Shown: one piece after another, positions 6,738-30,959 of the stretch
Layout of the letters: every line of letters starts with the position of its first letter
Position numbering within the stretch: the first letter of the stretch is position 1
Source of the DNA: Wolbachia endosymbiont of Cimex lectularius
GTDB lineage: Bacteria > Pseudomonadota > Alphaproteobacteria > Rickettsiales > Anaplasmataceae
Direction: 5' to 3'
Assembly: GCF_000829315.1 (NCBI RefSeq)
Contig: NZ_AP013028.1
Location: forward strand, 1,200,001 to 1,232,000
Length of the DNA stretch: 32,000 bases
Position numbers and translations under genes: made by a program
Notes under the pieces: model-generated
What the model was told of the DNA's origin: nothing
The model's database searches: none
The model's input: the letters and a program-made list of their open reading frames with translations, nothing else

Positions 6738-6791
6738 TTAGATCTGGCCTAGTAAACCTCTCGCATAAAAAACAGCTTTTGGTATATGCGA

Positions 6792-6998
6792 AAAAACTAC
6801 TTGACAACCTTCGTCGTCACCCTTATAATGATACTGAAGCTATTTGTTTAACTTCCCAATCTGAGCAGGTTAAAATGACAAGAAAACTTGTATTTGGCGT
6901 ACTATTGTTTAATTTTTCGCACTATGTGCACTGCATGTCTTTTTAAAAACTTCGGGTTTTTACCCATACAAGCTGAAACGCGCTTATAAGTCGTTTAA
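6792..6998 (+). repeat. B-type intergenic repeat, copy 1 (promoter-bearing; cut at its distal end by IS copy 1)
   Basis: About 207 bp, clearly homologous by eye to the reverse complement of 17643-17849 and more distantly to 31271-31471. Shared blocks include aaagacatgcagtgcacatagtgc and cttataagtcgtttaa. Confidence 0.75.
6801..6829 (+). promoter_or_regulatory. perfect sigma-70 consensus promoter inside the B-type repeat
   Basis: TTGACA (6801-6806), 17-nt spacer, TATAAT (6824-6829). No convincing ORF lies downstream. Confidence 0.5.
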
Positions 6999-7859
6999 GA
7001 ACCTGTTTAAAATCTTCGTAACAGGAGAGAAATGAAGGAGAGGACTATCATCTGTAAGCTAGTGTTGAGCTTCCGCTCGCAATTTTTCCACAATCGCCTG
7101 CACTTTTCTAACCAGGCAAAAGAGCGTTCAACAACCCATCTTTTTGGCAATACGACGAAAGTGTGTAACTCACTTCGCTTTATTACTTCAACAGTCGCAC
7201 CAATGATAGCTTTTATTTGTGTTGCAAAATTTTCTCCTGTGTAGCCAGCATCAACCAGTATGTTTTTAACTTCAGAGAGGTTTGCTTTAGCATTTTCGAC
7301 CATTTTCACAGCACTGCTACGGTCAGTTGCTTCTGCCGTTGTTACATAAATTGCATGTGGCAAACCTTGTGTATCAACTGCAATATGGCGCTTTATCCCT
7401 GAAATCTTTTTACCTGCATCATAGCCTTTTTTTTTCAGCAGTATCTGCGTTTTTAACGCTTTGAGAATCAATTATACAAAAGCTAGTTTTCTCTTTCCGA
7501 CCATTGCTGATACGGACCTCTCCAACTAATTTTTTTTAAGACTAATTCCAACAAGCTTGGCTCTTCTCCATTCTTTTTACTCCACACTCGAAAATAGTAA
7601 TATACGCTTTCCCATCTTGGAAAACCCTTTGGTAACATCCTCCACTGACAACCACTTTTTAAGACGTACAACACCCCACAAAATACGTCATACAAATCAA
7701 GTTTTCTTGGTTTTGTTTTCTGCTTGCTACTCTCCAAAATTGGCCTGATTTTTTCAAACTGCTCTTGACTTATATTACTTGGATAACTTTTCTGCATAGA
7801 CACCTCATTATTAATCTATGCTTACTTTACCTCACATTTCCAAGATTTTAAACAGGTTC
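6999..7859 (-). mobile_element. IS5-family insertion sequence (ISWpi1-like), copy 1, 861 bp
   Basis: 18-bp terminal inverted repeats: GAACCTGTTTAAAATCTT at 6999-7016 and its complement at 7842-7859. Flanked by TAA at 6996-6998 and 7860-7862. Near-identical to the copies at 8895-9754 and 23329-24187. Confidence 0.95.
7007..7797 (-). pseudogene. IS5-family DDE transposase, copy 1, carrying an extra A in an internal homopolymer
   Basis: orfA is MQKSYPSNISQEQF.... orfB carries the DDE landmarks DSQSVK, VDAGY and ERSFAWL. The run at 7427-7435 is 9 nt here and 8 nt in the other two copies, which breaks the orfB frame between DSQSVKNADTAE and KKGYDAGKK. Confidence 0.8.
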
Positions 7860-8678
7860 TAAGGCCTGTTCAAGCAACTTCTTTTGTTTTCTAGGATTGC
7901 CTAAATCAGAGTATCCATCATCCATCCATACTAATAAGTACACAAGATAATCCTTCTCTATTCTCTGTTTTTCTAAAGGTTTTTTTTCTTCTAGCCAAAC
8001 ATCAATATGTGACAGAAATGCTTCTAAATGCGGCAACAGTTGTCGTTTCTTAGCATAATCTTCTAATTTATCACTACCATAAGGAAAGCTTTCTTTTAAT
8101 AGTTGAAAAACGGTTTTTATTTCTTCTGTACTTTTTCCACTTTCCTCTGACTTTAGCCTTGTCACCTCCTGAACCAAGTTGTGCACTAACATGCTATGAT
8201 CTTTTTTGACAGTTAACATAGAATAACTTGACAATATTCCCAATGTTTCGTAGAAAGTTTCTGAGGAAGGATTATTTTCTTGATTATCAGCAAAAATTTC
8301 TAGTAAAAATTGAGGAATAGGACTACTACCTAAGTAAGCACAGGCAGTAAGCCATTTAACTGCCAATGAAGATTCTCTTTTGATTGCTTCTACTGTAATG
8401 TCCCATGTAACGTACACTATTGCTGCAGTCTCTCTATTAGCACCGACTGGAAATGTTTCAAGCAATGTTTTATCAGATAATAAAGCTCGTTTTCTATCAT
8501 TATATAATTTCACATAGTCTGAAATATTTATATATGTTTTCTTTATATAAGCGCTTGCTTGGGCTAAAGCTAGAGGTAAATGACCTAACGTCTTCGCCAA
8601 TGCATCCACTTGAGTTATATTGAGTTTTTTTCCTTTTACTTCTAGTATCTTACGAATGTAGCTCCTTGATTCTTCAGG
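7860..8678 (-). pseudogene. fragment 4 of the STAND gene: GLPL motif, winged-helix/helical region, start of a TPR-like repeat
   Basis: PEESRSYIRKILEVKGKKLNITQVDALAKTLGHLPLALAQASAYI...GNPRKQKKLLEQAL, then IS copy 1. The track ORF 7848-8609 ends in IS-derived codons. Confidence 0.8.
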
Positions 8679-8894
8679 TCAAAAACATCAACAGAAATAG
8701 TGCTCTGTGGTTGTGGCCAGCCAAAGTTATAACGAGAAGTTAATAATATCTTTCCTCCTTTTGTAGGAAGTAAATCTGCTATATCTTTATAGTTGGGAGC
8801 GTTATCACATATCAGTAGCCATCCGGCACGTTTAGGGTATTCTAGCCAGTACTTAACATGCTTAGCATGATCTTCTTCGAGGACATCTCTTTTA
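8642..8894 (-). pseudogene. fragment 3 of the STAND gene: Walker B / sensor-1 part of NB-ARC
   Basis: Removing IS copy 2 and one TTA duplication restores the frame: ...YDYK-RDVLEEDHAKHVKYWLEYPKRAGWLLICDNAPNYKDIADLLPTKGGKILLTSRYNF. Confidence 0.8.
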
Positions 8895-9754
8895 GAACCT
8901 GTTTAAAATCTTGGAAATGTGAGGTAAAGTAAGCATAGATTAATAATGAGGTGTCTATGCAGAAAAGTTATCCAAGTAATATAAGTCAAGAGCAGTTTGA
9001 AAAAATCAGGCCAATTTTGGAGAGTAGCAAGCAGAAAACAAAACCAAGAAAACTTGATTTGTATGACGTATTTTGTGGGGTGTTGTACGTCTTAAAAAGT
9101 GGTTGTCAGTGGAGGATGTTACCAAAGGGTTTTCCAAGATGGGAAAGCGTATATTACTATTTTCGAGTGTGGAGTAAAAAGAGTGGAGAAGAGCCAAGCT
9201 TGTTGGAATTAGTCTTAAAAAAAATTAGTTGGAGAGGTCCGTATCAGCAATGGTCGGAAAGAGAAAACTAGCTTTTGTATAATTGATTCTCAAAGCGTTA
9301 AAAACGCAGATACTGCTGAAAAAAAAGGCTATGATGCAGGTAAAAAGATTTCAGGGATAAAGCGCCATATTGCAGTTGATACACAAGGTTTGCCACATGC
9401 AATTTATGTAACAACGGCAGAAGCAACTGACCGTAGCAGTGCTGTGAAAATGGTCGAAAATGCTAAAGCAAACCTCTCTGAAGTTAAAAACATACTGGTT
9501 GATGCTGGCTACACAGGAGAAAATTTTGCAACACAAATAAAAGCTATCATTGGTGCGACTGTTGAAGTAATAAAGCGAAGTGAGTTACACACTTTCGTCG
9601 TATTGCCAAAAAGATGGGTTGTTGAACGCTCTTTTGCCTGGTTAGAAAAGTGCAGGCGATTGTGGAAAAATTGCGAGCGGAAGCTCAACACTAGCTTACA
9701 GATGATAGTCCTCTCCTTCATTTCTCTCCTGTTACGAAGATTTTAAACAGGTTC
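8895..9754 (+). mobile_element. IS5-family insertion sequence (ISWpi1-like), copy 2, 860 bp, apparently intact
   Basis: Same 18-bp inverted repeats as copy 1. Flanked by TTA at 8892-8894 and 9755-9757. Inserted inside the STAND gene. Confidence 0.95.
8957..9746 (+). CDS. IS5-family DDE transposase (orfA 8957-9271 plus orfB frame 9219-9746; a frame change is needed at the A8 run 9217-9224)
   Basis: GAGG at 8948-8951 precedes ATG 8957. orfB is in the +1 frame relative to orfA and opens right after TAA 9216-9218 inside the A8 run. The fused product would read ...LVLKK-LVGEVRISNGRKEKTSFCIIDSQSVKNADTAEKKGYDAGKK...VDAGY...ERSFAWL. Confidence 0.85.
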
Positions 9755-10228
9755 TTATAATCATAAATAATGTTTAGTTCACGTCCTAACTTGATGTACT
9801 CGTTAATTAAAGTATTTCTATCTTTTGCATCAAACCAAATTATCCCTTTATATTTTTGGAACTTACTCCAAATAAATTCTAATGCTAATTGTGTTTTACC
9901 TGTTCCACCTAGTCCATGACAAGCAACTAGTGTTGCTGTATCATTAGCGTCCAAACATTCTTCTATTTTATCTAGCAGTACTTCTCTGCCGACAAAGTTA
10001 TAATTTCGAAAAGAGACTTGCCAAAGTTCAGGTAGGCCTTCTTTGGGTTTAAGACTATAAAGATGTTCTATAGCTTCCTTAAAATAATTGTCTTTTCTTG
10101 TTAGATAAGGAACTTTGCTACCCTTTTGTGCCCACCATTTCTCTACCTTGTCATATACACGGACAAAAACCGTGTCAATATCTTCTCCCCTGATATTTTG
10201 TATACATTTCCTATTTCTTTCTTAATAA
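9755..10228 (-). pseudogene. fragment 2 of the STAND gene: linker plus P-loop (Walker A) part of NB-ARC
   Basis: The frame reads DIDTVFVRVYDKVEKWW...NYNFVGREVLLDKIEECLDANDTATLVACHGLGGTGKTQLALEF...NIIYDYK and then runs into the IS copy 2 end at 9754. Confidence 0.8.
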
Positions 10229-10919
10229 TATCATCTAATTCTGAATGATTAGGTTGATTAACTACAAACCTTAGTCTAAGTAGAAAATCTTCTATTTCAT
10301 CATCACTACCACAACTGAAGTATTTTTTCAGTTCAGTATGATTTTTTATTTTGTAGCACGCTCCTCTTTGACCTTTGCAAGTATTTAAAGTGTTATCATC
10401 TGTTAACGTTGATTCTTCCAGATACTTCTCTAATGTCTCTATGCTGCCTTGCTTTGCTGCACCTTTTTTTAAGTTCACATTAACATTAGTATGAATGGCA
10501 AGTGTGATATCGCTGTTCTGGAACTCAGTGCTTTGCTGAATCTCAGGATAAGATTCAACAAAATATTTGTTTAACCCGAAATCTTCTTTCTGTTGCTTTC
10601 TATCATTTTCATCAATAAACAAATCTTCAAAAGTAATATTCTTCGAAGCGCGATGTGTATTGCAGTGCTTAGCTTGAACCAAGACAATTTTCGATTTATT
10701 TTCCTGATCTTTATATTCAAAAAAAATATCATCAAAGGCTCCAAAACCTTCTATGTTTGATGCCAACCGAAAGTCAATTTTACCACTTAGCCCGTGGAGT
10801 AGATACAGCATTAATAATTTTACTTCGTACTTACGACCTTAATCACCTGTTGATGCGCCAGCTCTTTTCTGAAATGTAGAATTACCAAGTTCTTCAGACT
10901 GTTTATTTTCTACATTCAT
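10143..10919 (-). pseudogene. fragment 1 of the STAND gene: nuclease-like N-terminal module
   Basis: ATG 10919, then 26 codons, then an in-frame TAA, and the same frame continues into the 222-aa track ORF. Motif string: GD*GRKYEV...NIEGFGAFDDIFFEY...IVLVQAKH. Confidence 0.65.
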
Positions 10920-11159: not shown

Positions 11160-13820
11160 ATGTCAGATTCTACGTTAGTTTTAACAGTTGTTCTTATATT
11201 CTTCATTTTTACATTGTCATTTCTTTTTATAAGAAAGACATTTGGGTCAACGAATAAGAAGATAATAAAGTCCTTCAGAAAAATTGCTCAACAGATTAAT
11301 GCGCTAGAGCCAGAAATGCAGAGCTTATCTGATGAGGAGCTTGCTGGCAAAACCGAGGAGTTCAAACGAGAGTTGAAAGATGGAAAAACGTTAAATGACC
11401 TTCTCGTACCTGCATTTGCGGTTGTACGCGAAGCATCGCGAAGATTTCTTGGTATGAGGCATTTCGACGTTCAGTTGATCGGTGGAATGGTGCTTCACAG
11501 TGGTATGATATCGGAGATGAAAACAGGAGAGGGAAAGACACTCGTTGCAACTTTAGCTGCATACCTAAATTCCTTAGAAGGCAAAGGTGTGCACGTTGTA
11601 ACTGTTAATGATTACCTTGCAAAACGAGACACAGAATGGATGAGCAAATTATATAATTCTCTCGGGGTCTCTGTTGCATTTATCACGAATAGTTTGACAG
11701 ATGAAGAAAGAAAAGAGGCTTATAGTGCAGATATCGTATATTCAACAAACAACGAGCTTGCCTTTGATTACTTGCGGGACAATATGAAATTTTCTCAAGG
11801 GGATATGGTGCAAAGAGGTTTCAATTATGCGATAGTAGACGAAGTAGACTCCATACTCATTGACGAAGCGCGTACTCCACTTATTATTTCCGGTCCAGTT
11901 GAGGAAAACAATCAGATATATAAGCACATAGACAAAATAGTAACCAAGTTGGTTGATTCTGATTATGAGGTAGATGAAAAGGGTAGGGCAGTATTCCTTA
12001 CTGGAGATGGCATTTCGCGAGTGGAGGAATTACTCAGATCATATAATCTCATTCCTGAAAATTCCTCGCTTTATGATACTGGCAACATGGTAATGACTCA
12101 CTATATAGATCAAGCACTGCGTGCACATAAACTGTTTACTGCTGATAAAGATTATATAGTAAAGGATGGCAAGGTAGTGATTATCGATGAGTTTACTGGG
12201 CGTATGATGGAGGGCAGGAGATATTCCGATGGTCTTCACCAGGCACTTGAAGCAAAGGAGAATCTTGAAATTCAGCATGAAAACCAAACTTTGGCGTCGG
12301 TCACATTTCAGAATTACTTTCGTATGTACAACAAACTTTCTGGTATGACGGGAACAGCAGCAACAGAGGCAGAGGAGTTTCGCGATATATATAAGCTGAA
12401 TGTAGTGAAAATTCCAACTAACGTGTCTGTAAAGAGAATAGATGTTGATGATGAAATTTATGGCACAGAAAAAGAAAAATTTAATGCTGTGTTGAAGTTT
12501 ATAGAAGAATGCCACAAGCGCCTTCAACCGGTCCTTGTTGGCACGGTTAGTATTGAAAACTCTGAAAAACTTTCTGCGCTTTTGCGGAGCCATTCTCTCA
12601 AGCACTCAGTGCTAAACGCTCGTTATCACGAACAAGAGGCGTATATAATAGCGCAAGCTGGAGTGCCAGGCGGCATTACTATAGCAACTAACATGGCAGG
12701 ACGTGGAACTGATATTCAGCTTGGTGGCAATGCTGAAATGATAGCAAAAGTGGAGCTAAATAAGATAAAAAATGCTAATGAAAGAGAAAAAAAATACCAA
12801 GAAATAGTCGAGAGAGTAAAAAAAGATAAGGAAATTGCTATAAAAGCTGGCGGTTTATGTGTGGTTGGAACCGAAAGACATGAAAGCAGGAGAATAGATG
12901 ATCAATTGCGTGGCCGCTCTGGGCGCCAGGGTGATCCTGGACTTTCTAAGTTCTTTTTGTCGCTTGAAGATGATTTAATGAGAATATTTGGCTCCGATAG
13001 AATGAGAAGTTTTTTGCAAAGGGTGGGGCTAAAGAACAACGAAGCTATTCATCATCCATGGATCAATAAGGCACTTGAGAAGGCACAGAAGAAAGTTGAA
13101 GCTCGAAACTATGACGTGCGGAAATCTCTGCTTAAGTTTGATGACGTAATCAACAACCAACGCAGAGTTATTTTTAAGCAGAGAAATCATATTTTAGGCA
13201 ATGAAATCAATGATTTGTTTGAAGTGTATAGTGAAGTAAATGAGAGTGTAATAGAAAGCATAGTGCAAAATGGTTATTACGAAGATTACATCGAAGATAT
13301 TGCCAAAGAATTCCATATAAGATATGGAATAACACTTGATAAAGAAGACTTAGCGAAGTTTTTAAACAAACAAGAAGCTTTGGATTACATAAACAATAAA
13401 GTGCAAGAATTCTTCGCCGAAAAGGAAAAATATTTCAATAGTCAGCAAACCACAGATTTGTGGAATACGGTAGTGAGGCAAGTGATGATTATGACGCTTG
13501 ATCATTTATGGAGGGAACACCTCTCAATTCTGGAGAGCCTAAGACAAAGCATAAATTTGCGTGCTATGGGGCAGAAGGACCCACTGAATGAATTTAAACG
13601 CGAAGCTTTTTTGATGTTTGAGTCGATGCTTGAAAAGTGGAAAGAGCTTACAGTTCATCGCCTAGCACACTTTAAGCTAGCAGATAACCAAGAAATAGGT
13701 AATAGGTTGCACCCTACTAAAAAGGATAGTTTCCCCAAAGTCTCAAGAAATGACAAATGCCCTTGTAACTCTGGAAAGAAATACAAACACTGCCACGGTG
13801 CGGTTACTGTGGTGAATTAG
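11160..13820 (+). CDS. secA: preprotein translocase ATPase SecA
   Basis: MKTGEGKT Walker [20 protein letters not shown], and C-terminal zinc finger [14 protein letters not shown]. The canonical N-terminus (x9-FGS) would start at TTG 11214. The ATG at 11160 adds 18 hydrophobic residues. Confidence 0.95.
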
Positions 13821-14949: not shown

Positions 14950-15789
14950 TTAGCCTTGGGTGTTCACCATGGTGTAATAAACAGCATAATATAAAGGAGT
15001 CCTTCCGTCTTTATCTTGTACATTAACGTCCGCACCTTTTTTTAATAGAGCCTCTGCTATTTGTGTATACTCATTCTCAGCAGCATAATGCAAAGAGGTT
15101 TTTCCTTCTTTATCTTGTAAATTAACCTTTGCTTTTTCTTGTAACAGGATTGCTACTACTTGTATATGTTCTCCTTTCCTACCAGTAGCACGATGTAAAG
15201 GAGTTTTTCCATTTTTATCTTGTAAATCAACATCAGCATTCCCTTCTTTTAATAGGGTTTCTACTGTTTGCACATGTCCACGCTCAGCAGCATAATGCAA
15301 AGGAGTCTGTCCATATTGATTTGGTACGTTAGTAGCTCCTTTTTTTAACAGAAGTTTCACCATTTCTATTTTATTTCCAAGCTCAACAGCATAATCTAAA
15401 GGGGTAAGTTTATATTGATCATGCATGTTAACGTCTGCTTTTGCTGCAAGTAAGATTTCCGCTACTTGTACATGCCCGCGCTCGGCAGCACAATGCAAAG
15501 GAAAGCCATCATTCACATCAATGCCACTTTCTATCAGAGCCTTTGCTAACTTTGCACAATTAAGTTTAGCTGCTAATTGTAGTAAACTACCATATGGAAA
15601 TTTCTTTAAATCAAAATTGTCTTCTTTCCACTGTTTAAAACATTCTTCTAAATCTTTCTTGGTTTGCTCATCTAAATTTTCTTCTTTGAGCTTAGTATCT
15701 ATTTCAGTTCTTATTTTATTAGCTACATTTTCCTTATTTAGATCTGAGCTATAACTGACTGCTAATAGTATTCTATCTAATTCCTGCAT
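14950..15789 (-). CDS. ankyrin-repeat protein (N-terminal helical region plus at least 6 ANK repeats), terminated by a frameshift
   Basis: Repeated TPLHYAAERGH-VQ-VE-LL--GADVN pattern. ATG 15789 is preceded by GGAGG (complement of 15795-15799) at 5-nt spacing. The track start at 15801 is a TTG. Confidence 0.85.
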   Translation of the reverse strand: MQELDRILLAVSYSSDLNKENVANKIRTEIDTKLKEENLDEQTKKDLEECFKQWKEDNFDLKKFPYGSLLQLAAKLNCAKLAKALIESGIDVNDGFPLHCAAERGHVQVAEILLAAKADVNMHDQYKLTPLDYAVELGNKIEMVKLLLKKGATNVPNQYGQTPLHYAAERGHVQTVETLLKEGNADVDLQDKNGKTPLHRATGRKGEHIQVVAILLQEKAKVNLQDKEGKTSLHYAAENEYTQIAEALLKKGADVNVQDKDGRTPLYYAVYYTMVNTQG

Positions 15790-15814
15790 TTTTTCCTCCA
15801 AGCTATAAAACTTT

Positions 15815-17642: not shown

Positions 17643-17849
17643 TTAAACGACTTATAAGCGCATTTGAGCTTGTATAGGTAAAAAACCAGAAGTTTTAAAA
17701 AGACGTGAGGTGCACATAGTGCAAAAAATTAAACATGGTACGCCAGATATACTAAGTTTTTTTGTCGTTTAATCTGCACAGACTGAAGATAAATAATAGC
17801 TTCAACCTTATGATAATGGGTTTGGAGGAACTTGTCAAGTAGTTTTTTT
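17643..17849 (-). repeat. B-type intergenic repeat, copy 2 (full length)
   Basis: Its reverse complement aligns along its length with 6792-6998. Confidence 0.75.
17810..17838 (-). promoter_or_regulatory. near-consensus sigma-70 promoter inside B-type repeat copy 2
   Basis: On the minus strand: TTGACA (17838-17833), 17-nt spacer, TATCAT (17815-17810). It points away from miaB. Confidence 0.45.
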
Positions 17850-19312: not shown

Positions 19313-22300
19313 ATGAATATGAAGTCAAAGCATTATCCTGATACAACGAGTAGTTCTGATTTTTCGTCGTTAGAAAAGGAAATCATAAAATTTTGGCAGG
19401 AAAGCAAAATTTTTGAGCGGTCAGTTGAGGAACGTTCCAAGGACAATTGTTTTGTCTTTTACGATGGACCTCCATTTGCAAATGGACTGCCACATTATGG
19501 GCATTTACTCACTGGTTTCATCAAAGACGCATTTGCAAGATATCAAACCATACTACAAAAAAGAGTTGAACGTAGATTTGGTTGGGATTGCCATGGACTG
19601 CCGGCTGAGATGGGTGCGGAAAAGGAACTTGGAATATCCGGCAGAACTGAGATAGAAAAATTCGGTATTGAAAAGTTCAATAACCATTGTCGTACTTCTG
19701 TGATGAAATTTTCATCAGAATGGGAAAAGTATGTAAATAGGCAGGCAAGGTGGGTAGATTTTCATAATGACTACAAAACCATGGATAAGTCATTCATGGA
19801 GTCAGTTATGTGGGCATTTAAGCAGCTTTATAATAAGGGTCTAGTGTATGAATCGGTGCGCGTTGTTCCCTATAGCTGGGCATGTGAAACTCCATTGTCC
19901 AATTTTGAAACAAGGCTTGATAATGCATATAAAGAAAAGACTAGCAAAGCTGTAACTGTTGCATTTGAGCTTTTAGAAAACCCGCAGCAGTTTAAACAAA
20001 AATGTAAGTTACTCGCTTGGACTACAACTCCTTGGACGTTGCCAAGCAACTTGGCACTGGCAATAGGGAAAGACATTGAGTATTGTGCAGTGTCAGTTCA
20101 CTCCTTGGTGTCATTCCAGTGCGTGACGCTGGAATCTAGAGAGAAAGAAACCTGGATCCCAGTGTCAAGCACTGGGATGACAGAGAAGAGCGCTAAAATA
20201 ACATCAGACCAACCTAATGAAATCTACATCTTCGCTGAAAGCTACCTGGAGAAGTTTATCAGCCACCTCGAACAAAACAATATTCCATATGAAAAATGCA
20301 ATATAAAACTCAAAGCAGATGATCTTGTAGGTCTTTCTTATAAGCCACTGTTTGATTACTTTAAAGATACAAAAAATGCTTTCCGCGTTTTCATAGCAGA
20401 TTATGTCACAGCAGAAGATGGTACTGGAGTTGTGCACACTGCTCCTGGATTTGGTGAAGAAGATTTTTATCTTTGCCAAAGCCATAATATTCCAGCCATT
20501 TGTCCAATTGATAACGGTGGAAAGTTTACTGCTGAAGTTTCAGATTTAGCTGGAGTTCATGTTTTTGATACTAACGATACAGTAATAAAGAAGCTGAAAG
20601 AACAAGGAAATTGGTTCAAAACTGAGCAATATATTCACAATTATCCACACTGCTGGAGAACTGATACTCCTTTAATCTATCGCACTATGCCTTCTTGGTA
20701 TGTTACTGTGACAAAATTCAAAAGCAGAATGGTAGAGCTAAATAAGAAAGTTAATTGGATTCCAAGTCATATAAGAGATGGTCAGTTTGGAAAATGGCTC
20801 GAAGGAGCACATGATTGGTCAATTTCACGTAATCGATTCTGGGGTACACCGATTCCCGTATGGAAGTCAGACGATGCAAGATATCCAAGGGTAGATGTGT
20901 ATGGTTCGATAGCGGAACTAGAGCGAGATTTTAATGTTAAAGTGGATGATTTGCACAGACCATTTATTGACACTTTAACAAGGCCAAATCCTGATGACCC
21001 AACAGGAAAATCAGTTATGCGTCGTGTGCCTGACGTATTTGACTGCTGGTTTGAATCTGGCTCAATGCCATTTGCACAAGTCCACTATCCGTTTGAAAAT
21101 AAAGAATGGTTTGAGAGTAATTTCCCGGCGGATTTTATCACCGAATATATAGCGCAAACTAGGGGATGGTTCTATACGCTTTTTGTGCTTTCGACTGCTT
21201 TATTTGACAGTGAACCATTTAAGAACTGCATATGCCACGGTGTTGTTCTCGATGTGAAAGGGCAGAAATTATCCAAGCGTTTGAATAATTATGCGGACCC
21301 AATGGAAGTGTTTGATAAATACGGTTCTGATGCACTACGTTTTCTTATGCTTTCTGGATCTATTGTTTGTGGTGGTAATTTGCTACTTGATAAAGAAGGA
21401 AACTCAATACGAGATGTTCTGAGAAACGTAATAAAGCCTATTTGGAACAGTTATCACTTTTTTACCATGTATGCAAATGCAGATGGAATTAAAGCTGAAG
21501 TTTGTAAGGATTACCAAAGCACTATTGATCGTTACATGATCTCCAAATGTTTTGAAGCTGTAGAAGGTATCCAAGCTTCTATGAACAACTACAATTCCCA
21601 AGAGGCTTGCAAAATTCTGATAGATTTTTTTGAAGTGTTAAATAATTGGTATATTCGTCGCAGTCGTGAGCGTTTTTGGAAAAGTGATTTAGATCAGGAT
21701 AAGACTGACGCTTATAATGTTCTATATAAGGTTTTTTATTACATACTTCGGGCTGCAGCTCCTTTATTGCCGCTTACAACGGAAACTATATGGCAGGGGC
21801 TCAAATATCAAGAAACATCTGTTCATTTGGCTGATTTTCCACAATTAGAAAAGTTTAATAGCGAGCTCATTGCTAAGATGGATTTAGTGAGAGAGATATG
21901 CAACTCTGCACTCTCTATTAGAAACACCTTTAATATACGTATCAGACAGCCACTTGGCAGTATGATCATTTATCACAAGTCTTCCTGTAGTTTTCTTGAA
22001 GGTGAACCGCTTTCTGTTATCCCAGAGTTCTCTCCTATCATCCCAGGGTTCCCCCCTGTCATCCCAGTGCGTGACACTGGGATCCAGTGTGCTGCAGACT
22101 CAAATGAATACCAAGAGATGATAAAAGATGAGGTGAATGTAAAAAGCTTGGAATTAGTAAATAGACTTGAAGGTATTGCATCACTAGAGTTAAAACTAAA
22201 TTTCCCACTACTTGGAAAGAAGGTTCCAGACAAAATCAAGAAACTAGTTCAATATGTCAAGGAGGAAAAATGGAGACAAGTTGGAAATGAGCGGATATTT

Positions 22301-22696
22301 CTAGGAGATGAATCAGAGAACTATATTATAGAAAAAGGTGAGTATGAACTATTATTAAAAGCAAACAGTAAATATTCCTCTGCGTTTGATAATAACAAAG
22401 GAGTTGTTATCCTAAACACTGAACTAAATGATGAATTAATTCTAGAAGGGCTCGCGAGAGATGTCGTGAGGCTCATCCAGGAAACTAGAAAACAAGCTGA
22501 TTTTCATATATCCGATAGAATCAGAGTAGTAATCAAAACAGAGGATGAGAAAATTAAAGAAACGGTGAATATGTGGAGTGAGTATATAAAAGAACAGACT
22601 CTTGCCTTATCTTTAGAAATTAATGTAGAAATTGAAACCAGCTTCTATTCCAAGGAATACCAAGATTTGATTGTTGGTATTAAGTTAGATTGTTAG
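19313..22696 (+). CDS. ileS: isoleucine--tRNA ligase, type 2 (eukaryote-like) form, carrying two palindromic-repeat insertions
   Basis: FYDGPPFANGLPHYGHLL (HIGH region) and KLSKR (KMSKS). 1127 aa. Confidence 0.95.
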   Translation: MNMKSKHYPDTTSSSDFSSLEKEIIKFWQESKIFERSVEERSKDNCFVFYDGPPFANGLPHYGHLLTGFIKDAFARYQTILQKRVERRFGWDCHGLPAEMGAEKELGISGRTEIEKFGIEKFNNHCRTSVMKFSSEWEKYVNRQARWVDFHNDYKTMDKSFMESVMWAFKQLYNKGLVYESVRVVPYSWACETPLSNFETRLDNAYKEKTSKAVTVAFELLENPQQFKQKCKLLAWTTTPWTLPSNLALAIGKDIEYCAVSVHSLVSFQCVTLESREKETWIPVSSTGMTEKSAKITSDQPNEIYIFAESYLEKFISHLEQNNIPYEKCNIKLKADDLVGLSYKPLFDYFKDTKNAFRVFIADYVTAEDGTGVVHTAPGFGEEDFYLCQSHNIPAICPIDNGGKFTAEVSDLAGVHVFDTNDTVIKKLKEQGNWFKTEQYIHNYPHCWRTDTPLIYRTMPSWYVTVTKFKSRMVELNKKVNWIPSHIRDGQFGKWLEGAHDWSISRNRFWGTPIPVWKSDDARYPRVDVYGSIAELERDFNVKVDDLHRPFIDTLTRPNPDDPTGKSVMRRVPDVFDCWFESGSMPFAQVHYPFENKEWFESNFPADFITEYIAQTRGWFYTLFVLSTALFDSEPFKNCICHGVVLDVKGQKLSKRLNNYADPMEVFDKYGSDALRFLMLSGSIVCGGNLLLDKEGNSIRDVLRNVIKPIWNSYHFFTMYANADGIKAEVCKDYQSTIDRYMISKCFEAVEGIQASMNNYNSQEACKILIDFFEVLNNWYIRRSRERFWKSDLDQDKTDAYNVLYKVFYYILRAAAPLLPLTTETIWQGLKYQETSVHLADFPQLEKFNSELIAKMDLVREICNSALSIRNTFNIRIRQPLGSMIIYHKSSCSFLEGEPLSVIPEFSPIIPGFPPVIPVRDTGIQCAADSNEYQEMIKDEVNVKSLELVNRLEGIASLELKLNFPLLGKKVPDKIKKLVQYVKEEKWRQVGNERIFLGDESENYIIEKGEYELLLKANSKYSSAFDNNKGVVILNTELNDELILEGLARDVVRLIQETRKQADFHISDRIRVVIKTEDEKIKETVNMWSEYIKEQTLALSLEINVEIETSFYSKEYQDLIVGIKLDC
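20107..20183. repeat. palindromic repeat element inserted in frame in ileS (insertion 1)
   Basis: ggtgtcattccagtgcgtgacgctggaatctag...cctggatcccagtgtcaagcactgggatgacag, translated as SFQCVTLESREKETWIPVSSTGMT. Hairpins at 20114-20134 and 20156-20178. Boundaries are approximate. Confidence 0.75.
22015..22095. repeat. palindromic repeat element inserted in frame in ileS (insertion 2)
   Basis: Three atcccag half-sites followed by the perfect hairpin atcccagtg-cgtga-cactgggat (22061-22083), translated as LSVIPEFSPIIPGFPPVIPVRDTGIQCAA. Boundaries are approximate. Confidence 0.75.
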
Positions 22697-23328: not shown

Positions 23329-24187
23329 GAACCTGTTTAAAATCTTGGAAATGTGAGGTAAAGTAAGCATAGATTAATAATGAGGTGTCTATGCAGAAAA
23401 GTTATCCAAGTAATATAAGTCAAGAGCAGTTTGAAAAAATCAGGCCAATTTTGGAGAGTAGCAAGCAGAAAACAAAACCAAGAAAACTTGATTTGTATGA
23501 CGTATTTTGTGGGGTGTTGTACGTCTTAAAAAGTGGTTGTCAGTGGAGGATGTTACCAAAGGGTTTTCCAAGATGGGAAAGCGTATATTACTATTTTCGA
23601 GTGTGGAGTAAAAAGAGTGGAGAAGAGCCAAGCTTGTTGGAATTAGTCTTAAAAAAAATTAGTTGGAGAGGTCCGTATCAGCAATGGTCGGAAAGAGAAA
23701 ACTAGCTTTTGTATAATTGATTCTCAAAGCGTTAAAAACGCAGATACTGCTGAAAAAAAAGGCTATGATGCAGGTAAAAAGATTTCAGGGATAAAGCGCC
23801 ATATTGCAGTTGATACACAAGGTTTGCCACATGCAATTTATGTAACAACGGCAGAAGCAACTGACCGTAGCAGTGCTGTGAAAATGGTCGAAAATGCTAA
23901 AGCAAACCTCTCTGAAGTTAAAAACATACTGGTTGATGCTGGCTACACAGGAGAAAATTTTGCAACACAAATAAAAGCTATCATTGGTGCGACTGTTGAA
24001 GTAATAAAGCGAAGTGAGTTACACACTTTCGTTGTATTGCCAAAAAGATGGGTTGTTGAACGCTCTTTTGCCTGGTTAGAAAAGTGCAGGCGATTGTGGA
24101 AAAATTGCGAGCGGAAGCTCAACACTAGCTTACAGATGATAGTCCTCTCCTTCATTTCTCTCTGTTACGAAGATTTTAAACAGGTTC
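23329..24187 (+). mobile_element. IS5-family insertion sequence (ISWpi1-like), copy 3, 859 bp
   Basis: Same inverted repeats as the other copies. TAA at 23326-23328 and at 24188-24190. It has a 1-bp deletion relative to copy 2 in tctctcctgttacg (tctctctgttacg at 24157-24169). Confidence 0.95.
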
Positions 24188-24276
24188 TAAGACGTACAAC
24201 ACCCCACAAAATACGTCATACAAATCAAGTTTTCTTGGTTTTGTTTTCTGCTTGCTACTCTCCAAAATTGGCCTGA
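23391..24276 (+). CDS. IS5-family DDE transposase, copy 3 (same A8 recoding site at 23651-23658; C-terminus altered by a 1-bp deletion and reading through into the adjacent IS fragment)
   Basis: orfA is identical to copy 2. orfB ends SFISLCYEDFKQVLRR... instead of SFISLLLRRF-stop. Confidence 0.75.
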
Positions 24277-24387
24277 TTTTTTCAAACTGCTCTTGACTTA
24301 TATTACTTGGATAACTTTTCTGCATAGACACCTCATTATTAATCTATGCTTACTTTACCTCACATTTTCAAGATTTTAAACAGGTTC
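24188..24387 (-). mobile_element. 200-bp 5'-terminal fragment of a fourth IS copy, inverted, abutting copy 3
   Basis: It is the reverse complement of IS positions 1-200 (IRL to the TTA at IS 198-200), with one mismatch in the IR (cacattttcaag versus cacatttccaag). Confidence 0.9.
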
Positions 24388-30630: not shown

Positions 30631-30712
30631 AGGGTGTCATCCAAGTACCGAAATCCAAGAAAAAGGACGGTGTCATCCCAGCGCCTCCTTTCTTGTCATT
30701 CCAGTGCTTGAC
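30631..30712. repeat. degenerate array of palindromic-repeat half-sites ending in the left half of a split hairpin
   Basis: gtgtcatccaag..., gtgtcatcccagcg..., tgtcattccagtgcttgac. Same family as 20107-20183. Confidence 0.6.
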
Positions 30713-30943
30713 ACACAGCTGTACGAACATTGCAATTAGCAGGTAATTTGCGTAACAGATGGTGTTATCCCAGTGCTCCGACACTGGGATCTAGCCTTTC
30801 CATAATCATCAAAAACGTCGTATTTTAACATAAAACAGCTACTTTTATACTCACCAACTTAATAAAATTCCTGGATGCCAGTGTCAGCTACTTGCATGAC
30901 ACCCTAGTGGTAGGCTCAAATCACAATGTTCGTACAGTTGTGT
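30713..30943. mobile_element. 231-bp MITE-like non-autonomous element inserted in the loop of a palindromic-repeat hairpin
   Basis: Terminal inverted repeats acacagctgtacgaacattgcaatt (30713-30737) and aatcacaatgttcgtacagttgtgt (30919-30943) match at 22 of 25 positions. Direct repeats gcttgac at 30706-30712 and 30944-30950. No ORF inside. Confidence 0.65.
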
Positions 30944-30959
30944 GCTTGACACTGGAATC

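Follow-up and report, generated by a model that had tools for sequence, protein, structure and literature searches.

A probable remnant of a chromosomal nuclease-STAND-tetratricopeptide repeat gene, with five lesions, in the Wolbachia endosymbiont of Cimex lectularius

Analyses of a 32,000-nucleotide stretch of the chromosome of the Wolbachia endosymbiont of Cimex lectularius (contig NZ_AP013028.1, positions 1,200,001 to 1,232,000; hereafter the window) revealed a region, 7863-10919 on the minus strand, that very probably represents a single dead gene carrying five lesions. Its ancestor would have been a chromosomal gene coding for a nuclease, a STAND NTPase and tetratricopeptide repeats (TPRs), located between secA and sucB. 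The remnant comprises codons 1 to 733 of an ancestral gene of approximately 1020 to 1135 codons, with an insertion sequence (IS copy 2) inside it. An initial annotation of this DNA had proposed one gene with five lesions in a six-point reading, and all six points were reproduced on the minus strand and checked against intact orthologues. Conceptual repair of the pseudogene gives a 736-aa product, which in a protein search is 79 to 84% identical to the proteins P0001, P0002 and P0004 over 100% of its length. The pieces of the pseudogene do not stem from unrelated genes: all of them align to one orthologue, and in close relatives they map to one gene, not to different genes.

The lesions were defined by reference to the intact orthologues P0001 and P0008 and to the intact genes at the loci L005 and L006, the former on a complete chromosome of a group-A Wolbachia. 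Relative to these intact syntenic genes, the window copy is disabled by a nonsense codon, by two deletions of 1 bp each, by an IS insertion and by truncation at the 3′ end. The gene starts with an ATG at 10919 on the minus strand and runs for 26 codons to an in-frame TAA (10841-10839, minus strand). This nonsense codon, codon 27, stands where the orthologues have His, Gln or Tyr in the protein alignment; at the DNA level the codon is CAT in intact L005 and L006 and CAA in wMoz (L003), and the lesion is a single C-to-T nonsense change. Downstream of the TAA, the same frame remains open as a 222-aa open reading frame (ORF; 10143-10811).

The first 1-bp deletion (frameshift 1, 10185-10190, minus strand), identified by DNA alignment with intact L005 and L006, is the loss of an A after a G4 run. 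At approximately position 10186, the window has GGGGAGAAGAT where the orthologue sequence is GGGGAAGAAGAT or GGGAAAGAAGAT, the intact genes having GGGGAAGAAGAT. The protein junction, as aligned with the orthologues, reads ...YKISG[K/E]EDIDTVF... with one residue missing, and the -1 shift opens the frame into ...NYNFVGRE...GLGGTGKTQLALEF. At this site, the shortened sequence recurs in the related locus L004, one substitution apart from that of the window, and on this sequence comparison frameshift 1 appears to be common to both. The second 1-bp deletion (frameshift 2, 8678-8681, minus strand; GAA to GA), identified by DNA alignment with L003 and L006, lies just past a T5 run. Here an A was lost at 8679/8680, yielding TTTTTGACCTG in the window versus TTTTTGAACCTG or TTTTTGAATCTG in the orthologue, and in the intact genes TTTTTGAA(C/T)CTG corresponds to TTTTTGACCTG of the window. 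In the protein alignment, the junction VDVF[E/T][S/P].ES lacks one residue, and the -1 shift opens the frame into ...GHLPLALAQASAY. The frame changes had been attributed to the G4 (10187-10190) and T5 runs themselves; the place and the shift were borne out, but in both cases the lost A lies beside the run, and the runs are unchanged.

The gene is further interrupted by IS copy 2, an 860-bp element of the IS5 family on the plus strand (8895-9754), which is bounded by the terminal inverted repeats GAACCTGTTTAAAATCTT and by a TTA duplication (8892-8894 and 9755-9757). Excision of the element together with one TTA restores the frame, as had been predicted, to give ...IIYDYK-RDVLEEDHAK...WLLICDNAP...GGKILLTSR. 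The target site falls within ...DY[E/K]..NV... of the orthologue alignment, and it is empty in L001, L003 and L004. Assignment to the IS5 family follows from the two-frame DDE transposase, the inverted repeats GAACCTGTTTAAAATCTT and the 3-bp TNA target duplication. The transposase is encoded in two overlapping ORFs that match DUF4096 (E 6e-22) and DDE_Tnp_1 (E 5e-24), both scored on the near-identical IS copy 1.

IS copy 1 (861 bp, 6999-7859, minus strand), which is inverted relative to IS copy 2 and has TAA on both flanks, breaks off the reading frame at 7863/7860, inside GNPRKQKKLLEQAL. That segment (7860-7901, minus strand) is the first half of TPR 1: it aligns with GNPRRQKELLEWALPI..., the start of the TPR_12/TPR_10 array of the orthologues, which agrees with the earlier description of a TPR-like helix cut at its beginning. 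The orthologues run on past GNPR.QK.LLE.AL with 7 to 10 TPR_10/TPR_12 units, and in comparison with them the 3′ truncation has removed approximately 290 to 400 codons of TPR repeats. A tblastn search of the 32-kb window with the orthologue TPR regions found no other TPR remnant, consistent with the annotation's statement that no repeat or sensor domain follows downstream.

The surroundings of the cut bear on how the 3′ end was lost. The window keeps secA (11160-13820), sucB is absent from it by tblastn, and past IS copy 1 come a dispersed repeat of approximately 210 bp (6789-6998) and then ftsH. We considered that IS copy 1 might simply have inserted into a gene that was already short, in which case the gene would stop three codons farther on, as ...EQALNDL*. 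The TAA flanks are no proof of this, because every copy of the IS here has TAA or TTA flanks (TTA/TTA for IS copy 2, TAA/TAA for IS copies 1 and 3), and the simple-insertion reading was rejected on that ground and because both flanks are native, with the TPR codon GCC-TTA on one side and on the other the repeat element TTAAACGAC, which is also found in L004 and L002. Most likely, IS copy 1 marks a rearrangement, the simplest reading being recombination between two IS copies, by deletion or inversion. Such an IS-associated rearrangement would have taken the whole sensor array and the neighboring sucB from the locus.

Other observations concern these mobile and repeated sequences. IS copies 1 and 2 are inverted around a gene segment of 1029 bp (7863-8891) and show only two differences, A/G at 7571/9183 and one A in an A-run at 7435; their near identity and inverted arrangement argue for recent transposition or gene conversion and make them a substrate for inversion. 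IS copy 3 (23329-24187, TAA flanks) is nested in an older copy of the same IS, of which a 200-bp end remains at 24188-24387. The intergenic repeat of approximately 210 bp has a second copy at 17643-17848 that forms an inverted pair with 6789-6998, with 72 to 87% identity, and it also occurs at non-syntenic places in L001 to L004, with two copies in L003. Because this element is dispersed, recurring within the window and in those loci, the repeat at 6789-6998 was rejected as a synteny marker.

Sequence comparisons support the assignment of the central part of the product as a putative NB-ARC-type STAND NTPase, whose core (8556-10008, minus strand) is divided by IS copy 2. The assignment draws on the Pfam NB-ARC profile, on the NCBIfam model NF040586 and on motifs. 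The Walker A (GLGGTGKT, 9915-9892), Walker B (WLLICDNA, 8821-8798), TSR (GGKILLTSR, 8758-8732) and GLPL (GHLPLALAQA, 8585-8556) motifs and an MHD-like His occur in this order on the minus strand, and their residues are invariant in 8 orthologues. The MHD-like motif (VHNLVQEV, 8192-8163, minus strand), whose H626 is invariant in the orthologues, lies in a predicted winged-helix and helical linker resembling DUF7779 (7903-8555, minus strand; Pfam DUF7779 E 0.011, residues 561-636). The Pfam NB-ARC match covers residues 313-465 of the repaired product (E 4.6e-4), and NF040586 matches residues 305-680 over profile positions 4-373 of 830 (E 1.4e-62, 212.4 bits). By sequence, the closest solved relative of the NTPase is AfsR (E 2.4e-8).

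The N-terminal domain (residues 1 to approximately 295; 10036-10919, minus strand) is supported, by predicted structure and motifs, as a Cap4-type PD-(D/E)xK nuclease fold, in line with the nuclease called in the initial annotation. No match to Pfam, NCBIfam or PADLOC was obtained for these 295 residues. This call required structure prediction, because searches of Pfam and of PDB sequences with the single sequence of the domain gave nothing significant, and a profile search gave only a sub-threshold match to Cap4 (E 0.08). The AlphaFold2 model of the orthologue N-terminal domain has a pLDDT of 87.6 and a pTM of 0.87. In a Foldseek search against the PDB, all of the best matches (E<=0.005) are Cap4-type nuclease-bearing defense proteins, namely, Cap4 (7yib, E 4e-6), HamA (8zue_A), LmuA (9hr5), HerA-DUF4297 (9c1m) and Avs3 (8dgc_A, E 4.6e-3).

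The motifs of the predicted fold point in the same direction. In an alignment of 24 homologues, G28, D64, Q82 and K84 are invariant, and Y31, F62, D63 and H85 are nearly so. A profile-to-sequence alignment places HG..YQ, FDD and QxK opposite HGHDYQ, FDDV and YQIK of Enterobacter cloacae Cap4, with K84 opposite the catalytic lysine of Cap4, at or beside K74, which is replaced by alanine in PDB 7yia. In the window, the corresponding motifs on the minus strand are G28-RKY-E (10838-10821), FDD (10736-10728) and VQAKH (10679-10665), and the pseudogene thus still carries FDD and VQAKH. Cap4, HamA, LmuA and HerA-DUF4297 are the best structural neighbors of the domain (E 4e-6 to 3e-3) and share the motifs HG..YQ, FDD and QxK. 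However, the partners of Cap4/DUF4297 nucleases are SAVED, helicase or SMC proteins as opposed to the STAND NTPases of the present family, and sequence identity is 9 to 15%. The domain has 537 homologues in a representative library of 1.8 billion proteins.

Several results weigh against the reconstruction of a nuclease-STAND-TPR gene. Pfam NB-ARC (PF00931) gives the repaired product 20.0 bits, below the gathering cut-off of 23.5; intact P0001, at 27.1 bits, is above the cut-off, and more distant homologues reach 39 to 46 bits. The Foldseek TM-score is moderate (0.50, normalized to the query), because the targets have extra domains. No Pfam nuclease model matches the N-terminal domain, DUF4297 included: that profile (PF14130), which the initial annotation had expected to match, hit neither the repaired protein (E<=1) nor any of 24 family members (E<=5). 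Finally, beyond the window, another part of the genome might still carry the 3′ portion of the gene.

Intact orthologues with C-terminal repeats were found in other Wolbachia, as the initial annotation had anticipated; they are longer than the repaired product, with 1022 aa in P0001, 1028 aa in P0008 and 1135 aa in P0004. The three-part effector-STAND-repeat architecture that had been proposed is present in the intact orthologues, which carry a C-terminal TPR array; the sensor is absent in the window. The array of P0001 matches TPR_12 (E 5e-71), and the orthologue array resembles kinesin light chain (E 7e-39). By comparison with these proteins, the ancestor would have been a single-gene chromosomal STAND protein of approximately 1020 to 1135 aa, consisting of a Cap4-type nuclease, an NB-ARC NTPase with a winged-helix/helical linker and a TPR array. 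Members of the family are common among Wolbachia of groups A, B and F and are usually annotated there as "tetratricopeptide repeat protein".

The genomic context of the gene is conserved. Intact P0008 and P0001 are found in the order secA, gene, sucB. At L005 and L006, secA is divergent from the gene and sucB is convergent with it; at L001 to L004 the gene adjoins secA, and a sucB-like ORF of approximately 390 aa lies just downstream on the opposite strand. Of the related loci that the reference-genome collection yielded, 4/4 have a broken syntenic secA-adjacent gene, with one frameshift in L001 (8001-11407), several frame changes in L002 (7995-12350) and L003 (7951-10938), and an N-terminal deletion and frame changes in L004 (8001-10003). 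The secA-adjacent gene is thus undergoing recurrent independent erosion, by different lesions in the four related loci. Among intact copies, the ratio of nonsynonymous to synonymous substitutions (dN/dS) is 0.19 to 0.28, and for the window copy versus the intact genes it is 0.24 to 0.32, a value consistent with fairly recent inactivation. The dN/dS of the intact copies, taken with the four broken loci, indicates that the gene has been kept in some strains and repeatedly lost in others.

These comparisons characterize the gene as an old resident of the core chromosome, under purifying selection where it is intact. The initial annotation had considered such a gene unusual in an obligate symbiont and had offered a horizontally acquired module as one explanation. 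Neither view was supported: the family is widespread in Wolbachia at a conserved secA-sucB locus that is broken in all four related loci, and a recent horizontal origin is unlikely because of this wide distribution, the conserved core locus and its independent breakage.

Two of the intact genes also differ unevenly along their length. Between L005 (8001-11087) and L006 (3810-6878), dS is 0.30 in the nuclease domain but 1.60 in the NTPase region, and protein identity is 83% in the former and approximately 58% in the latter. This suggests that the intact orthologues are mosaic, through recombination between divergent alleles or paralogues.

It is a reasonable supposition, by analogy, that the family may work like NLR/Avs proteins. 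In the intact protein, the TPR array would bind a ligand, and nucleotide-dependent oligomerization of the NB-ARC domain would bring the nuclease domains together, switching on DNA cleavage. The trigger might be phage WO proteins or something else. The closest parallel in layout is Avs3 (Salmonella SeAvs3, PDB 8dgc), which like the intact family combines a Cap4-like nuclease, a STAND NTPase and C-terminal helical repeats in one polypeptide. Avs3 differs in that the repeats of the family are canonical 42-aa TPR_10/TPR_12 units of the kinesin light chain type, not the Avs sensor fold, and in that the NTPase of the family falls by sequence in an NB-ARC/AfsR-like clade; the window copy differs further, being dead and lacking its sensor. 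PADLOC-DB 2.0 had 0 matches to the repaired protein at E<=1, and PADLOC analysis of P0001, P0004 and P0008 retrieved no Avs/AVAST model, only generic matches, all in the TPR region. Since no PADLOC Avs/AVAST match was obtained and the nearest solved NTPase is AfsR, we did not adopt the Avs label of the initial annotation.

A second candidate affiliation was with NF040586, the "FxSxx-COOH system tetratricopeptide repeat protein", which is also the RefSeq name of the orthologue P0008. NF040586/AfsR-type proteins carry a TIR, SARP or other effector domain in contrast to the nuclease of the present family. The score of 212.4 is below the equivalog cut-off of 300, and the intact orthologues have secA and sucB as neighbors, with no genes for an FxSxx peptide or a maturase beside them. 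Membership of the FxSxx-COOH TPR group failed on the score and the neighborhood.

The ancestor may, tentatively and at somewhat less than even odds, have been an Avs-type antiphage sensor, whose TPRs would recognize a conserved WO protein such as the terminase or portal and whose nuclease would bring about abortive infection; loss of the gene would then reflect relaxed selection for defense. An antiphage role of this kind is suggested by analogy with the three-part architecture of Avs3, itself a fold match (8dgc_A), and by the finding that every significant fold neighbor (E<=0.005) is an effector of an antiphage system. The organization as a single-gene system and the purifying selection on intact copies fit as well, as does the fall in defense-system diversity reported for intracellular Anaplasmataceae (preprint 10.1101/2023.01.31.526412). 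On the other side stand the lack of PADLOC AVAST/Avs matches for both the repaired protein and the intact orthologues, an NTPase nearest to the NB-ARC/AfsR/FxSxx-TPR clade, canonical kinesin-light-chain-type TPRs in place of the Avs sensor fold, and a neighborhood of housekeeping genes without a defense island.

A somewhat less probable alternative, which we consider rather unlikely, is that the ancestor was a host-directed effector from an endosymbiont/arthropod "eukaryotic association" pool, with its nuclease or TPRs acting on host-cell targets. NB-ARC, NACHT and TPR proteins have already been recorded in Wolbachia, mainly in the eukaryotic association module (EAM) of phage WO (PMC5062602; PMC6133264), and EAM domains of these three types have been listed among candidates for the manipulation of host cell death (Bordenstein and Bordenstein 2016, PMC5062602). 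A domain 53% identical to the N-terminal domain heads P0121, a 2622-aa Wolbachia protein with NACHT, ankyrin and latrotoxin-C-terminal parts, and a prophage WO protein with the same NACHT-ankyrin-latrotoxin architecture and with animal homologues has been reported (PMC5062602). The domain is also found in "Ca. Mesenet", in Amoebophilaceae and in a Culex quinquefasciatus protein, and the TPRs resemble animal kinesin light chain. However, the EAM proteins are prophage-borne and combine NACHT, ankyrin repeats and a latrotoxin C-terminal domain (CTD), whereas the present family combines NB-ARC and TPRs and resides in the core chromosome. The copy lies outside prophage, between secA and sucB, and a tblastn search of 50,697 GenBank phage records detected no phage homologue; moreover, nuclease-effector STAND proteins are typically cell-autonomous switches. 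An origin of this copy from the EAM of phage WO is likewise unsupported, given the secA-sucB location in L001 to L006 and the absence of a phage homologue. Our literature search turned up no paper on this nuclease-NB-ARC-TPR gene or on any Wolbachia system of the Avs type, only general EAM and NB-ARC mentions.

Whatever the ancestor did, it is very improbable that one or more fragments persist as short functional proteins, for example, the 222-aa ORF (10143-10811) or a 253-aa helical ORF (7848-8609). Both ORFs are open, and the dN/dS of the window copy is still 0.24 to 0.32; that low value would mostly reflect history before inactivation. The 222-aa ORF is without the invariant G28/Y31 motif and begins inside helix 1, the 253-aa ORF has neither NTPase nor sensor, and the related strains show progressive erosion with no conserved fragments. 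No fragment retains both the nuclease start and the NTPase, which argues for a remnant without function. That the gene is really intact and its lesions are assembly or sequencing errors is hardly credible: one-base losses beside homopolymers (G4, T5), as in both frameshifts, are a typical error context on some platforms, but a nonsense substitution, an 860-bp IS with target duplication and loss of the TPR array cannot be put down to homopolymer errors, the independent assembly L004 appears to share frameshift 1, and four other assemblies carry multiple breaks in the syntenic gene.

Other features were noted elsewhere in the window. Two inverted-repeat pairs, 20152-20194 / 22045-22087 and 30698-30737 / 30919-30958, have arms of 40 to 43 nt that are 80 to 86% complementary. 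Each arm of the former pair holds the palindrome CCCAGTG...CACTGGG, and the pair lies inside or beside an ORF of 1127 aa (19313-22696). An ankyrin-repeat gene (14950-15801), which adjoins secA, contains five copies of a repeat of approximately 63 nt spaced 99 to 105 nt apart; it has 35 to 64% protein identity with its L001 counterpart, compared with 95% for the flanking ribonucleotide reductase gene.

The locus in the window is itself an ordinary IS-mediated pseudogene, and its interest lies in the little-studied family to which it belongs. Homologues of the Cap4-like domain include P0121, P0129, P0139 and P0150, that is, the NACHT-Ank-Latrotoxin_C protein, very large ankyrin proteins of "Ca. 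Mesenet" and Amoebophilaceae, and the Culex protein XP_038107929. The distribution of the N-terminal domain spans endosymbionts and arthropods. Within Wolbachia, "Ca. Mesenet" and Amoebophilaceae, family members pair NB-ARC, NACHT or nSTAND3 NTPases with TPR, ankyrin or latrotoxin-CTD tails. The nuclease domain is beyond the coverage of Pfam and PADLOC, and prophage-type NACHT-ankyrin-latrotoxin proteins and mosquito genes have it as well.

To our knowledge, few antiphage systems have been recognized in Wolbachia, although these bacteria live with phage WO. A nuclease-STAND-TPR gene kept by selection in some strains is a candidate Wolbachia antiphage system, or else a host-directed effector. 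Culture of Wolbachia requires host cells. Where the gene is present or decayed among strains can be compared with WO prophage load, and P0008 and P0001 are testable constructs. It is a doubtful possibility, and one that we put forward as speculation, that the remnant marks an undescribed NLR-like family whose member between secA and sucB could serve Wolbachia as an innate sensor of its own against phage WO. If true, this would connect the bacterial phage-defense toolkit with genes that endosymbionts and animals have exchanged.

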